A stretch of DNA of 64,000 bases from Oscillospiraceae bacterium (GCA_015066175.1 SVOW01000013.1:38562-102561); one strand, 5' to 3'. Numbered from the stretch's first letter, positions 34,133 to 62,281 are shown. The notes: a model not told the origin generated them from the sequence alone. Made by a program: numbers and translations.

Positions 34133-34407
34133 AAATTATAATTTAGCGTGGTATTAAAATCAGCATCGTAGGGGCGGATGCCAACATCCGCCCGAATAAA
34201 TTCACACAAAATCTGACGGGTCGATGTAGGCATCGACCCCTACAATGTAAAATCGAATATACATATAAATTATAATTTATATGGTTATTTAAATTAAATA
34301 TCGTAGGGAACGGCGGTTTCCGACGTTCCGCAAAAAGCAATTGGCGGTTTGTCGGCAAGCGCCAAACCCTACAATGTTAAAAATAGTATCACGCTAAATT
34401 ATAATTT
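34133..34407. repeat. Two adjacent REP doublet modules separated and bounded by AAATTATAATTT
   Basis: Palindromes at 34133-34144, 34267-34278 and 34396-34407. Hairpins: GTAGGGGCGGATGCCAACATCCGCCC (34168-34193), an inverted GTAGGGGTCGATGCCTACATCGACCC (34215-34244), and a copy of the 24731-24810 doublet (34303-34372). Confidence 0.85.
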
Positions 34408-39626: not shown

Positions 39627-40331
39627 TTACAATATTGACAAAATTTTGTCAATTTCTTGTGCATCTACATTAATTTTGCCACCGGCAGAGCCGATATTCT
39701 CCAAATAATGTGCATCGGAGCTTGATAAAATGTTCATTTTTTCAAGCACCGGAAACCTTTTTATGTAGTCGCTTCTGTCTGCATCTTTTGTGATTTCCGC
39801 AGTAGTGAAACCCATATATTCATCAATCATACCAAGGTTTGAAATCACGCTGTAAGACGAACGGTCAATGTGTGCAGGAAAAGCTACACCGCCGAAACTT
39901 TTTATCAATTCAGGCACTTTGTCGAGTGATACGTTTGCAGCAGTTGTAAGAAGCAACTCTTCGCTGCCTGTGATGTTATCTTTATGGTCCATAATAAGCT
40001 GTTCACCGAAAATTTCAGATCTGTTTTTCACAGGCGGAATTCTTTCTCTGACATAAGAAGAAAAATCAAGGGCTTTTTCAAGGTCAGGAAAAAGGCACAC
40101 AACATGAACTTCTTCATCTGTGCACAATTCCATACCGGGGATTACAAGAATGCCCGCTTCTTCCCCCGCTTTTATTGCAGCAGGGCAGTTAAGGCAGGTA
40201 TTGTGGTCTGTCAGAGCAATAACGTCAAGCCCCATAATCTTTGCCATATTGACAAGATTATAGGGCGTCATATCATTATCTCCGCAAGGAGACAAGCAGG
40301 AATGTAAATGGAAATCGTAATTCAGTTCCAT
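39627..40331 (-). CDS. PHP-domain phosphoesterase
   Basis: DFHLHSCLSPCGD and ALTDHN. Confidence 0.75.
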   Translation of the reverse strand: MELNYDFHLHSCLSPCGDNDMTPYNLVNMAKIMGLDVIALTDHNTCLNCPAAIKAGEEAGILVIPGMELCTDEEVHVVCLFPDLEKALDFSSYVRERIPPVKNRSEIFGEQLIMDHKDNITGSEELLLTTAANVSLDKVPELIKSFGGVAFPAHIDRSSYSVISNLGMIDEYMGFTTAEITKDADRSDYIKRFPVLEKMNILSSSDAHYLENIGSAGGKINVDAQEIDKILSIL

Positions 40332-40343
40332 TTTACTCTCTCC

Positions 40344-40676
40344 TTACTTTAATTCTTCGTAGATTTTTGTTGCAGTTTCATAAGTGTTCATTTCTGTCTG
40401 CAACACGATTACACTGTTTTCCTGTGCACGTTTAAGTGCATCGGCATCAAATGCAGCATTTTCTGTAAGCACAATGCAGGCAACGTCAGAAAGCACCGCA
40501 ACACCTACAGAGTTCACATTACCCATAACGGTAAGCCAGATATCGTCGGCATTTGCCCTTGACATAACCCAGCTTAAAAGGTCGCCACAGTAGCAACCCT
40601 TTGCTTCGCGTGTTTCGATATCTGCTGCATTTAAAATTTTCATTGAATATTTTTCTGCTAAATCTTTGACTTTCAT
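40344..40676 (-). CDS. DRTGG-domain protein
   Basis: A small protein resembling the paralog at 44748..45098 and sitting in the same type of context. Confidence 0.6.
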   Translation of the reverse strand: MKVKDLAEKYSMKILNAADIETREAKGCYCGDLLSWVMSRANADDIWLTVMGNVNSVGVAVLSDVACIVLTENAAFDADALKRAQENSVIVLQTEMNTYETATKIYEELK

Positions 40677-40710
40677 AGGAAAAATCCTTTCAGGAGTTTA
40701 TTACAGATTC

Positions 40711-40740
40711 GTACGGGACGATGTGGGCATCGTCCCATAC
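40711..40740. repeat. REP hairpin flanking the RAYT gene (downstream side)
   Basis: GTACGGGACGATG TGGG CATCGTCCCATAC. Confidence 0.8.
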
Positions 40741-40754
40741 GGTGATAATTTAAG

Positions 40755-41213
40755 TTATAAAATATATTTTTCCACCCAACGGTATGGGTTTGATTCAATA
40801 TATTTCCATGTTTCCTCATAGTCTTGTCTGTTACGGATAACGTGGTCAAAATATGAACGTTGAAAAATCGAAAAACCTATATTCTTTGTAACCAACGTTT
40901 TGAATGACTTAATCCGTTTTTCGATTCCTGTAGGGGTCGATGCCCACATCGACCCGTCTATGATAATTATCATATGAATATGGTCGGGCATAATAACATA
41001 TTTATCAATTCCCGGAATTGATTTTATATATTTTTCAACAGTCTTTCCATATTCCGTCAGCACAACTCGCGGGACGATGTGGGCATCGTCCCCTACAATA
41101 ATCTCTGACAAAATCCGTTTGCGTCCATTAGTACACAACGTAATAAAATACGCACCGGGTGTGGAATAATCGTATTCTTTTAATCTCGTTTGTTTACGTT
41201 CAGGTAATGGCAT
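40755..41213 (-). CDS. IS200/IS605-like Y1 (HUH) transposase of the REP-associated (RAYT) type
   Basis: MPLPERKQTRLKEYDYSTPGAYFITLCT, the HUH motif PDHIHMIII and the C-terminal Tyr region QDYEETWKYIESNP. ATG 41213 is used. The ORF-track extension to 41255 is rejected. Confidence 0.8.
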   Translation of the reverse strand: MPLPERKQTRLKEYDYSTPGAYFITLCTNGRKRILSEIIVGDDAHIVPRVVLTEYGKTVEKYIKSIPGIDKYVIMPDHIHMIIIIDGSMWASTPTGIEKRIKSFKTLVTKNIGFSIFQRSYFDHVIRNRQDYEETWKYIESNPYRWVEKYIL

Positions 41214-41242
41214 ATATATACCGCCTGTTTTGTGGATTTTTG

Positions 41243-41268
41243 CGGTCGACCACAAGGGTCGACCCTAC
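41243..41268. repeat. REP hairpin flanking the RAYT gene (upstream side)
   Basis: The reverse complement reads GTAGGGTCGACCCTTGTGGTCGACCG. Confidence 0.75.
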
Positions 41269-41278
41269 AGTATCAATT

Positions 41279-42910
41279 TTAAATAATCTTATTATTTTTC
41301 TCAACAATTTCCCCTACGCAATGTGTTTCAAGTGTGTATGGGGCGTCGAAAACATTATTGGTGATTTCTGCTTTTGCAAGGTATGTAAGATAAAACAGAT
41401 GTCTATCTTCTTTGGGTTTTTGGAATGTGTTGCCTGTTACAACAAGCTCACCGTGGACAAAATGCGCGGAATTCTCATCCATCACTTTCGGGGAATATCT
41501 GATTACGGGGGCTCCCTTCCACATAGAAGCGTGCTCGCACTGTTTTACAATGTTGTTTCTGAAAACAACCTTTTTCGTATAGCCTGATTCAAACCAGAAA
41601 TTGCAATCATCTTCCAAAAGAAGCGCAGGTCCCCAAAGGCTGTCGAAAACATTATTTTCAATTACAACTTCGCCACGGGTTGTGCATAAAACTCCTCTGC
41701 CCGATGTTGTGCCGAAATTGCAGTTTCGCACATACAAATCAGGTGTCCACGTTGCGTTTTCCACAACGTCTTTGCCGACTTCTATGTTATCATTCAGATT
41801 CGTAAGATAAAGTCTGATATCTGTGTCGTTTAATTTTTCGTAAGATAAAACTTCCGTTTCGCCAAAAGGTGCAAGAGTATTCCACTTGATAAATTCAAGT
41901 TTATCGCCTTTTTCAAAAGCCTGAAAGCCCCAGCTTTCGGGATGCATAAAACGGACAGTTATAGTTTTTTTGCGTTTGTTTCTTCTGATAATTCTCAGAT
42001 GAGTGCCATGCACATTCACATAGTCATCGTGTGCACCCCACGCTTTTATGTTATCGAGGATTATTCTGCCTTTACAGCCTGAAAACTGAAAGAAATCGGC
42101 TGTGCTTGCAACTGTCCTTCCCTCTTTGGGTGTAAAATCGCAGTTTTCAAATTTTACATTTTCGCAGAATTGTGAAACAACACCGAGCCCGTGCATAAAT
42201 TTCATACGGATATTTTTAAATTCAAGATTTCTGCATCTTTCAAAGAAGCTGCCTGTCTGGTCGCGGACAATATTTCTTGACTGAATAATATGACCTACAG
42301 GAAAATCGGCATCTTTGTAAACAAGCTCTGCACGGAAAGTGTCTTCGCTTATTTTTTCTGCCTTTTTAAACTCAAGTGTTTCACGCCTGAAATCCCGTGT
42401 GAGCCTTGTTTCGGGATTGAAAATTTTTATAAATCTGCCCTGACCGTATGTTTTTCCCTGCCAGTAGGGTTTGCCGTTTTCGGCTGTTTCGCCTTTAAGA
42501 ATAAGGTCTTTTCCGTCAATATCAAAAATGCAATCACTGTTTACTCTGAATTCGCAGATACCATTGTTGTTTGAAAGAATTTCAAACTCCGTCATAGTGG
42601 GGCAGAAATAGTCTACTGCAAGATTTTCAACAGTGATGTTTTCACATTTATAAAAAAGCAACGGAGTCATTTTTCCGTGGACACAGATTTCTGCACCGTT
42701 TCCGCGGATTGTAATATTCTTTTTATTTTCAAGGAATATGGCACAATAACGCGTACCCTTGGGATTTTCGTGTCTTTTGGCTGTGTTTGAACAGTAGTAT
42801 CCTGTTTTCACGAAAGAATCTTCAGGTTTTATATGGTATATTCTGCCTTTTTCAAGTTCAACAACATCGCCGTCGGCAACATTTTCAAACAGTGTGCTCA
42901 GTTCATTCAT
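41279..42910 (-). CDS. Right-handed parallel beta-helix protein (putative cytoplasmic glycoside hydrolase or lyase)
   Basis: Repeated short strand motifs (ITIRGNG, ITVENLAV, VKFENCDF, LYVRNCNF, VVIENNVF, VVFRNNIV, ITNNVF). No signal peptide. The start codon lies 2 nt after the upstream stop. Confidence 0.6.
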   Translation of the reverse strand: MNELSTLFENVADGDVVELEKGRIYHIKPEDSFVKTGYYCSNTAKRHENPKGTRYCAIFLENKKNITIRGNGAEICVHGKMTPLLFYKCENITVENLAVDYFCPTMTEFEILSNNNGICEFRVNSDCIFDIDGKDLILKGETAENGKPYWQGKTYGQGRFIKIFNPETRLTRDFRRETLEFKKAEKISEDTFRAELVYKDADFPVGHIIQSRNIVRDQTGSFFERCRNLEFKNIRMKFMHGLGVVSQFCENVKFENCDFTPKEGRTVASTADFFQFSGCKGRIILDNIKAWGAHDDYVNVHGTHLRIIRRNKRKKTITVRFMHPESWGFQAFEKGDKLEFIKWNTLAPFGETEVLSYEKLNDTDIRLYLTNLNDNIEVGKDVVENATWTPDLYVRNCNFGTTSGRGVLCTTRGEVVIENNVFDSLWGPALLLEDDCNFWFESGYTKKVVFRNNIVKQCEHASMWKGAPVIRYSPKVMDENSAHFVHGELVVTGNTFQKPKEDRHLFYLTYLAKAEITNNVFDAPYTLETHCVGEIVEKNNKII

Positions 42911-53732: not shown

Positions 53733-54053
53733 AAATTATAATTTATCAGTATGTTTATGTATATCAGGCGTAGGGGCGCCCATTGGGCGTCAGTCTGAAA
53801 AACACGAAAAAAACGACGGCAACACCGTAGAATTTTCATTATAGTTCATGGCGGGACGGGAGACCCGTCCCCTACGATACAGCCACAAATGTACGGTAAA
53901 TTATAATTTATCGTTATATGATTGCGTCGCAGACCCGAAACATTTCCGTCAGGAAATATATCACATCGCGTAAGCGATATATCACTGCAATGCAATATCA
54001 CTTTGCGCAGCAAAATATCACTAATTATAATTTGTGACAACAAATTATAATTC
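53733..54053. repeat. Composite repeat: a REP module (53733-53909) plus 156-bp GTGATAT element copy B, inverted (53898-54053)
   Basis: Perfect AAATTATAATTT at 53733-53744 and 53898-53909. Near-copies (11 of 12) at 54021-54032 and 54042-54053. Hairpins GTAGGGGCGCCCATTGGGCGTC (53770-53791) and an inverted GTAGGGGACGGGTCTCCCGTCCC (53850-53876). Confidence 0.9.
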
Positions 54054-61877: not shown

Positions 61878-62281
61878 CACCGCCGTGTCATTCTCGAACG
61901 TTAGTGAAGAATCTCGGCGGTGTTAAGTTTTATGTGTTGCCATTTTGAGATTCTTCGCTTATGCTGGGGGGATGACAACAAAATGGCAAGGTTGGTTGCA
62001 TAAAAATTATAATTTTCAGCTATTACTGATGTTGGTTTTATAATGATTTGCAAGCACGATGCCCATATCTGGTTTTTCAAATTATAATTTATAGTGCAAT
62101 TAATTTTAACATTGTAGGGTTTGGCGCTTGCCGACGAGCCTTGTAAAAATAATATATAAAACCAACGGCAACAACGTAGGGGAGCCGTTTCGGCTCCCGC
62201 GAAATTTCATCATAGTTCATGGCGGGACGGGCAACCCGTCCCCTACGATACAGCCGCAAATATACGGATAAATTATAATTT
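61878..62281. repeat. Composite REP cluster with three AAATTATAATTT palindromes
   Basis: Hairpin CACCGCCG/CGGCGGTG at 61878-61922. Palindromes at 62004-62015, 62079-62090 and 62270-62281. REP hairpins: GTAGGGTTTGGCGCTTGCCGAC (62114-62140), GTAGGGGAGCCGTTTCGGCTCCC (62176-62200) and an inverted GTAGGGGACGGGTTGCCCGTCCC (62221-62247). Confidence 0.85.

Follow-up and report, generated by a model that had tools for sequence, protein, structure and literature searches.

The gene for a REP-associated tyrosine (Y1/HUH) transposase (RAYT, or TnpAREP) in a gut Clostridia bacterium contains, within its own coding sequence, two GTAG-headed REP hairpins of 26 nt each that are in frame, mutually inverted, and placed so as to bracket the segment coding for the HUH motif. 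We consider that this gene is probably a compact REPtron, that is, an intact RAYT of the subclass 2.4 type with its cognate REP/inverted REP (iREP) pair located inside the open reading frame (ORF) and not flanking it. RAYTs and REPs rank among the most abundant bacterial repeat systems, and such an arrangement bears on how a RAYT stays tied to its repeat family and on how its activity is restrained. Coordinates refer to the window (the whole 64,000-nt stretch of DNA that was analyzed) unless another contig or locus is named.

The RAYT gene and its product

The RAYT coding sequence spans positions 40755 to 41213 on the minus strand (152 amino acids plus stop; start MPLPERKQ in the ORF list) and specifies a small, domesticated transposase. 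The ORF is intact, with the HUH motif at H78-I-H80 and the catalytic Tyr138 in WKYIESNP, and H78, H80, and Y138 were invariant across 79 sequences of relatives. The window protein scored below the cutoffs of both NCBIfam NF047646 (REP_Tyr_transpos; 56.5 bits, curated cutoff of 80) and Pfam PF01797 (Y1_Tnp; 16.6 bits, cutoff of 23), and thus its membership in the RAYTs rests on motifs, fold, and profile matches; a precomputed PF01797 match is present in many of its close homologs. When the AlphaFold model of the protein (pLDDT of 85.6) was searched with Foldseek, the best match was 4er8_A, the Escherichia coli RAYT-REP complex (E value, 4e-7; TM, 0.60), and the profile of the RAYT family also matched 4er8 (E value, 7.5e-13). 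Together with the intact HUH and Tyr, these matches bear out the identification of the gene as a RAYT in an earlier note on this DNA. The residues by which E. coli TnpAREP contacts GTAG, as listed in PMC6006769 and PMC8266576 (Q95, E100, H101, and R104), correspond in the profile alignment to Q118, D123, H124, and R127 of the window RAYT, all of them invariant or nearly so in the family.

The consensus motifs of the RAYT family were PNHIHLI, WQRSY, and YIDxNP, while the window RAYT has DHIH, FQ, and YIESNP and ends 14 amino acids past the Tyr, with no C-terminal extension. Judged from sequence, this set (N/DHIH, WQ, YIxxNP, and no tail) fits TnpAREP subclass 2.4 of Quentin, Siguier, Chandler, and Fichant (2018; PMC6006769), with the motif definitions (NH[IFV]H, WQ, and YIxNNP) taken from the text of that paper. 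Subclass 2.4 is equivalent to RAYT group 4 of Bertels et al. 2017. Identity as an IS200/IS605 TnpA insertion sequence was ruled out, given that the hairpins are inverted and inside the ORF, not subterminal and on the same strand; the presence of only two diverged paralogs in the genome and the lack of an extra ORF between the flanking genes also speak against it.

Hairpins inside and beside the gene

The first in-gene REP copy (hp1; 41071 to 41096, minus strand) has the sequence GTAGGGGACGATGCCCACATCGTCCC, read as GTA GGG GAC ..., and codes for residues 40 to 48 (VGDDAHIVP). The second copy (hp2; 40930 to 40955, plus strand) has the sequence GTAGGGGTCGATGCCCACATCGACCC, with the GTAG head on the template strand, and codes for residues 87 to 95 (GSMWASTPT). 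Positions, opposite orientations, and peptides were thus found as previously reported in the earlier note. Both hairpins have a 4-nt loop on a 9-bp stem without mismatches, and when folded as single-stranded DNA (ssDNA) each of them reaches -10.7 kcal/mol (z of about -4.6). The core pattern GGGWCGATGNNNNCATCGWCCC occurs 4 times in the 64,000-nt window versus 0 expected (100 shuffles), and the hairpins have a G+C content of 65%, versus 33% for the remainder of the RAYT gene. Between both copies there is an inter-REP segment of 115 nt (40956 to 41070, minus strand), which codes for the helix of residues 54 to 63 and for the two strands that bear the HUH motif. In the predicted mRNA fold, hp1 pairs with hp2 around this segment in a duplex of roughly 30 bp (minimum free energy of -77.4 kcal/mol; z of -8.1).

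In the AlphaFold model, the hp1 peptide forms the tip of a beta-hairpin (E36-39/E49-52) that is absent from E. coli TnpAREP, and the hp2 peptide makes up the loop that follows the HUH strand and has pLDDT values below 50 at residues 90 to 94. The placement described earlier, one peptide after the N-terminal strands and the other directly after the HUH strand (H78-I-H80), therefore holds, and the check for surface loops proposed with it had a positive outcome. The corresponding variable region was modeled by Quentin et al. (PMC6006769) as peripheral to the DNA-binding surface.

The gene had also been described as flanked on both sides by GTAG-headed hairpins, which proved right only upstream. 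There, a hairpin with the exact span 41244 to 41268 (minus strand; GTAGGGTCGACCCTTGTGGTCGACC) lies 30 nt before the start codon; it belongs to a repeat family other than that of hp1 and hp2, and one more copy within 2 mismatches is found in the same genome at C13:18657. The downstream palindrome (40711 to 40740), located 15 nt past the stop codon, has the same stem and loop as hp1, but its plus strand runs GTAC...ATAC and its minus strand GTAT...GTAC, and neither foot is GTAG. Since both feet are one base off GTAG, we refer to it as a double foot.

Repeats and second RAYT of the same genome

The 2.63-Mb assembly contains about 205 GTAGGG-headed hairpins belonging to several families. Although ORFs of at least 120 amino acids make up 89% of the genome, they hold only 10 of these 205 hairpins, and 5 of the 10 are in the two RAYT ORFs. 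The largest repeat set is a REPIN-like inverted doublet of 76 nt (31 copies), made up of GTAGGGGCGGATGCCCACATCCGCCC, a conserved 24-nt spacer, and inverted GTAGGGGTCGATGCCTACATCGACCC. An extragenic example is found in the window at 34168 to 34243 (plus strand, 76 nt), where the 24-nt spacer lies between a GCGGATG-type REP and a GTCGATG-type REP in inverted orientation. The hp2 copy belongs to this doublet family, with 33 copies within 1 mismatch in the genome. The earlier reading of the in-gene hairpins as REPs holds, and they belong to families of their own genome. The hp1 stem is found only at hp1 and in the palindrome at 40711 to 40740, without extragenic copies elsewhere in the genome, and it differs in two stem pairs from the abundant partner REP (GCGGATG type).

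In comparison with REPINs, the extragenic 76-nt doublets (31 copies) fit the description. The in-gene pair shares their orientation, and a similar fold is possible, but its spacer is 115 nt long, coding, and single copy. Derivation of the 76-nt doublets from the hp1-to-hp2 segment by internal deletion, for which tblastn matches were suggestive, was dropped after spacer alignment; aligning the 24-nt doublet spacer with the 115-nt in-gene spacer gave no significant similarity (P values of 0.05 with shuffles and 0.03 with random genome segments).

The gene copy number is low, with two RAYT paralogs (39% identical) in the genome. The second one (contig C16, 77201 to 77662) has an in-frame inverted pair of its own, with both copies being GTAGGGGCGCCCATCGGGCGTCC and the peptides VGAPIGRP and GRPMGAPT. 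This pair shows a G.T wobble on the GTAG strand and has few extragenic relatives. Several abundant REP families of the genome match neither RAYT, for instance, GGGACGGGT (25 copies) and GGTTTGGCG (23 copies). Further REPs in the window, at 53853 to 53875 and 62176 to 62246, belong to a 23-nt family (GTAGGGGACGGGTCTCCCGTCCC and a doublet with GTAGGGGAGCCGTTTCGGCTCCC), and GTAGGGGACGGGTCTCCCGTCCC is identical to the in-gene hairpin of a RAYT from another species (locus L069). Outside the window, at C9:46082 to 46298, a cluster of four REPs from three families lies within an ORF of at least 120 amino acids, which is either a spurious ORF over a REP array or a further case of in-frame REPs.

Family-wide layout of the in-gene pair

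We compared the window gene with 80 loci (20 kb) from different Oscillospirales species, many of them from metagenome bins, giving 81 genes in all. At least one in-gene GTAG hairpin was present in 76 of the 81 genes and both were present in 64, with a mild bias toward hairpin-bearing genes in these counts because the query used to rank the loci by similarity included the hairpin peptides. In the homologs, hp1 is located at about nt 114 to 135 on the coding strand, and hp2 follows the HUH codons on the opposite strand, at about nt 246 to 354. All 71 plus-strand in-gene hairpins of the homologs (71/71) share the hp1 site and frame (GTA GGG), even though two frames are free of stops. Seven genes, six of which form one clade, keep the DNA element of hp2 but read it in a second frame (..GTPPLQ). 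By contrast, 27 other RAYT-type genes from the phylum, most of which are longer, all lacked an in-ORF GTAG hairpin.

Hairpin-bearing genes were found in both halves of the tree, and one small nested clade (L033, L040, and L068) lacks both copies, which argues that the pair is ancestral to the set and was lost once or a few times. The two sites therefore do not derive from repeated independent insertion. In this sense, the simple in-frame insertion put forward in the earlier note did not hold; the segments are not lineage specific, as the same two sites are occupied in 76/81 homologs, with a constant frame for hp1. The DNA of the homologs at these positions is palindromic, and the opposite finding, which the note would have counted against its proposal (the same peptides encoded by nonpalindromic DNA), was not made.

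Extra in-frame REPs have accumulated at the post-HUH site in loci L001, L008, L011, L013, and L043 and at the first site in L012, L017, L072, and L075. The additions, in genes such as L013, L011, L008, L043, and L072, are REPs or whole doublets. These additions indicate that the hp1 and hp2 sites behave as real REPs. GTAG REPs within 150 nt on both flanks were found in only 2 of 62 genes with both in-gene copies versus 3 of 4 genes with none, a contrast that comes from one small clade (L033, L040, and L068) and thus represents effectively one evolutionary event.

One pair of loci, L005 and L018, have RAYT genes that are 97% identical, with the same Oscillospirales-type hairpins, one record being titled Bacteroidaceae bacterium and the other "bacterium"; this near-identity reflects either misbinning or recent transfer.

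Link to the extragenic REPs of each host

Among the 34 of the 20-kb loci that had extragenic hairpins nearby, 22 had a hairpin that differed by at most 2 nt from an in-gene copy. In a cross-locus control, such a match occurred at a rate of 14%, and none of 5,000 permutations reached the observed count. Genome-wide, copies of the in-gene hairpin within 3 mismatches numbered 33 (G001) and 32 (G002) in two Ruminococcus flavefaciens genomes, while two other genomes had 10 and 5. The assemblies G003 and G006, which are drafts of unknown completeness in which repeats are often left unassembled, have only the two in-gene copies, perfect and mutually identical.

Conservation of the hairpins at the DNA level

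Within a gene, hp1 and hp2 were on average 1.9 nt apart, with 22 of 64 pairs being identical, whereas between genes the mean was 7.8 nt. There were 41 distinct hp1 sequences, and the peptides vary as mirrored pairs, such as VGADALGGP/GPPRASAPT, VGTGVLDCP/GQSGTPVPT, and VGKAALCLP/GRQRAAFPT. The only constant parts of the peptides are those dictated by GTAGGG and CCCCTAC (VG... and ...PT). Changes in the stem are compensatory, with 6 of the 9 stem pairs altered on both sides among 63 aligned copies, and they change the protein too. The stem covariation score was 0.479, compared with 0.136 for shuffled alignments (0/500 reached the observed value) and at most 0.127 for slid controls; as hairpins were picked with at most one mismatch, the percentage of paired positions is inflated, but the diversity of pair types is not. 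For example, close homologs show S..T, T..S, A..P, and P..A, i.e., all four Watson-Crick pairs at one stem position, at which the first bases of two codons pair.

Synonymous sites follow the same pattern. In gene pairs with 70 to 80% protein identity, synonymous third-position differences amounted to 42% outside the hairpins versus 5% inside, about an 8-fold reduction. In close relatives (about 60 to 73% protein identity), VGDDAHIVP and GxMWASxPT rank with the most highly conserved blocks. Throughout the family, the hairpins keep the GTAG head and a GGG/CCC foot, and one large clade keeps a single purine-purine mismatch, which has the same orientation relative to GTAG in hp1 and hp2 and recalls the stem irregularity required by E. 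coli TnpAREP. With regard to G.U versus A.C wobbles as a discriminator between RNA and DNA, the sole recurrent non-Watson-Crick pair was the purine-purine one.

The two copies differ mainly in the loop and at one stem pair, which is compensated, and therefore each local hairpin is the conserved unit. The long-range hp1:hp2 duplex was rejected as the selected unit, since it is the predicted minimum-energy fold but the differences between copies favor the local hairpins. At L004 (10109 to 10134), the stems are identical and the hp1 loop AGGG is the reverse complement of the hp2 loop CCCT, a loop "flip" of the kind that recombination or template switching inside the palindrome would produce.

Taken together, the concerted evolution of the copies, their match to the REPs of the host, the compensatory stems, and the frozen synonymous sites indicate that the DNA hairpin is the conserved object and that the surface loops of the protein follow from it.

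What the in-gene pair may do

On this basis, we favor the compact REPtron proposed above. A REP and an inverted REP sit in frame before and after the HUH-coding segment, at positions that code for loops, and the enzyme would recognize hp1 and hp2 as ssDNA, each on its own GTAG strand, as suggested by conservation of the residues that contact GTAG and by analogy with the TnpAREP of E. coli. The in-gene pair would then take the cis role that flanking REPs have in classical REPtrons, as a recognition site or seed copy that is always linked to the gene and whose loss would destroy it. Throttling of expression, through binding of the protein or through strong mRNA structure, would be a likely side effect. 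The data are compatible with the autoregulation suggested in the earlier note, i.e., putative binding of the enzyme to its own gene or mRNA. A broader version, tentative at this point although possible, extends the proposal to all of subclass 2.4: a cis REP/iREP pair would be obligatory, either flanking the gene or, mostly, in the ORF, where it would determine the sequence of two loops of the protein, with the hairpin and not the peptide under selection and serving as recognition site, as a seed copy carried along with the gene, and as a binding site for expression feedback.

The main rival explanation, which we regard as rather unlikely, is the one implied by Quentin et al. 2018 (PMC6006769), in which the hairpins are functionless in-frame insertions tolerated in two permissive loops and kept REP-like by REP copying or gene conversion. 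Repeated overwriting by REP copying, or gene conversion, could indeed generate both the concerted evolution and the synonymous conservation without selection at the level of the organism. Moreover, model confidence is reduced in the loops at both sites, E. coli TnpAREP has a short post-HUH loop, the variable region has been placed off the DNA-binding surface (PMC6006769), one clade manages without either hairpin, and in several genes in-frame REP arrays have grown at both sites, which thus act like ordinary REP landing places. While array growth and loop positions are accounted for in this way, frame, persistence, and synonymous sites are explained poorly. The sites are constant, with a single frame in 71/71 hp1 copies in spite of two stop-free frames, and hairpins occur in both halves of the tree; perfect, identical pairs persist in draft assemblies without another copy to convert from, synonymous differences are about 8-fold fewer within the hairpins, and in-gene pairs are distributed complementarily to flanking REPs.

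An effect of mRNA structure in cis, where hairpins or the duplex slow translation or attract a double-strand RNase independently of any recognition by the protein and so hold the amount of transposase very low, would be in line with the long-range hp1:hp2 duplex (-77.4 kcal/mol; z of -8.1). Transposases are commonly restrained by mRNA structure, IS200 being a known case. Hairpin-mediated downregulation of RAYTs has also been discussed (PMC3733652). However, an RNA roadblock needs neither the invariant GTAG head and GG..CC foot nor a purine-purine mismatch oriented relative to GTAG, the frequent compensated differences between hp1 and hp2 stem pairs keep the local hairpins perfect while introducing mismatches in the long duplex, and the in-gene sequences follow the REP families of each genome. 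We consequently see mRNA structure as an improbable sole cause. Scarcely credible, and contradicted by the data, is the converse reading in which selection acts on the peptides as working parts of the protein, with the DNA palindromes being incidental. The conservation of VGDDAHIVP and GxMWASxPT among the closest relatives would agree with it, but across the family the peptides are nearly free (VGADALGGP, VGTGVLDCP, or VGKAALCLP) while geometry, GTAG, and foot are fixed. One DNA element is read in two frames, amino acid changes come in base-pairing pairs with synonymous sites frozen, and one clade is missing both peptides.

Comparison with known REP/RAYT systems

In-frame REP "insertions" in subclass 2.4 genes were reported by Quentin et al. 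2018 (PMC6006769), and since the core phenomenon has been known from that publication, the gain here is refinement and not discovery. The window RAYT shares with subclass 2.4 the N/DH[IV]H, WQ, and YIxxNP motifs (at the family level), the lack of a C-terminal extension, GTAG-headed REPs with a three-G-C foot, and an in-frame REP between HUH and Tyr in the beta3-alphaC loop (hp2; residues 87 to 95). The 8-amino-acid extra segment of subclass 2.4 (PMC6006769) may be the counterpart of the hp1 peptide. In that study, however, the in-gene REPs are described as insertions of variable length and sequence between HUH and Y, whereas the family analyzed here has two fixed sites, including one upstream of HUH, that are inverted, concerted, nucleotide constrained, and mostly without flanking REPs. 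No description of a fixed inverted two-site pair (including the pre-HUH site) was found in the literature searched, with subscription journals outside its coverage, and the same is true for concerted or compensatory evolution, nucleotide constraint, and the near absence of flanking REPs. The hosts differ as well: they are Clostridia here, and PMC6006769 lists Cyanobacteria, Bacteroidetes, and "various phyla"; the earlier remark that REP/RAYT systems are mainly described in Proteobacteria does not apply to this RAYT subclass.

The E. coli REPtron, in which TnpAREP is flanked by REP/BIME sequences (4er8; Ton-Hoang 2012; Messing 2012; Corneloup 2021, PMC8266576), has a common fold (TM, 0.60) and the HUH, catalytic Tyr, and GTAG-contact residues in common with the window RAYT, along with a genome-wide family of GTAG-headed hairpins that often form inverted pairs. 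The stem irregularity, a recognition feature, is a further likeness. The E. coli system differs in that REPs flank the gene, the post-HUH loop is short, and a C-terminal tail (absent here) is present. Activity has been demonstrated only for the TnpAREP enzymes of E. coli, Stenotrophomonas, and Marinomonas.

In the REPIN-RAYT systems of Pseudomonas and Enterobacteria (Bertels and Rainey 2011; Bertels et al. 2017, PMC5581495), the RAYT is likewise of low copy number and apparently vertically inherited, and it is linked to inverted REP doublets (31 of 76 nt here) and codiverges with the repeat. Here, in contrast, the linked doublet is within the ORF, with a coding "loop" of 115 nt, and the RAYT group is another one. 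Intragenic REPs and Rickettsia palindromic elements (Di Nocera et al. 2013, PMC3733652) are also palindromes translated in frame in loops of functional proteins, but they are sporadic and found in unrelated genes, while in this case the repeats lie in the gene for their own enzyme, at sites that are conserved in the family.

The family is thus a clear natural case in which DNA secondary structure overrides protein sequence conservation within a coding region. Recognition hairpins in the enzyme's own frame are also a clean experimental handle, with both partners in one 460-bp gene. The natural variants provide dozens of matched enzyme-hairpin pairs, and recoding that breaks the stems is able to separate effects at the DNA level from those at the protein level.

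Gene neighborhood and ORF fusions

In the window, the neighbors of the RAYT gene (region 39627 to 42910) are a gene for a 543-amino-acid beta-helix protein (41279 to 42910) and ORFs of 110 (40344 to 40676) and 234 (39627 to 40331) amino acids. All of them, including the RAYT gene, lie on the minus strand and lack an obvious terminator, and the RAYT may be transcribed by read-through from the neighboring genes. In three Faecousia species (L002:9218 to 10477, L011:9146 to 10543, and L013:9215 to 10588), the RAYT frame is continuous with that of an upstream protein with an XRE-type helix-turn-helix and TPR. The resulting single ORF of 420 to 466 amino acids combines Pfam HTH_3/HTH_31, TPR, and Y1_Tnp in one product and is possibly a regulator-RAYT fusion.
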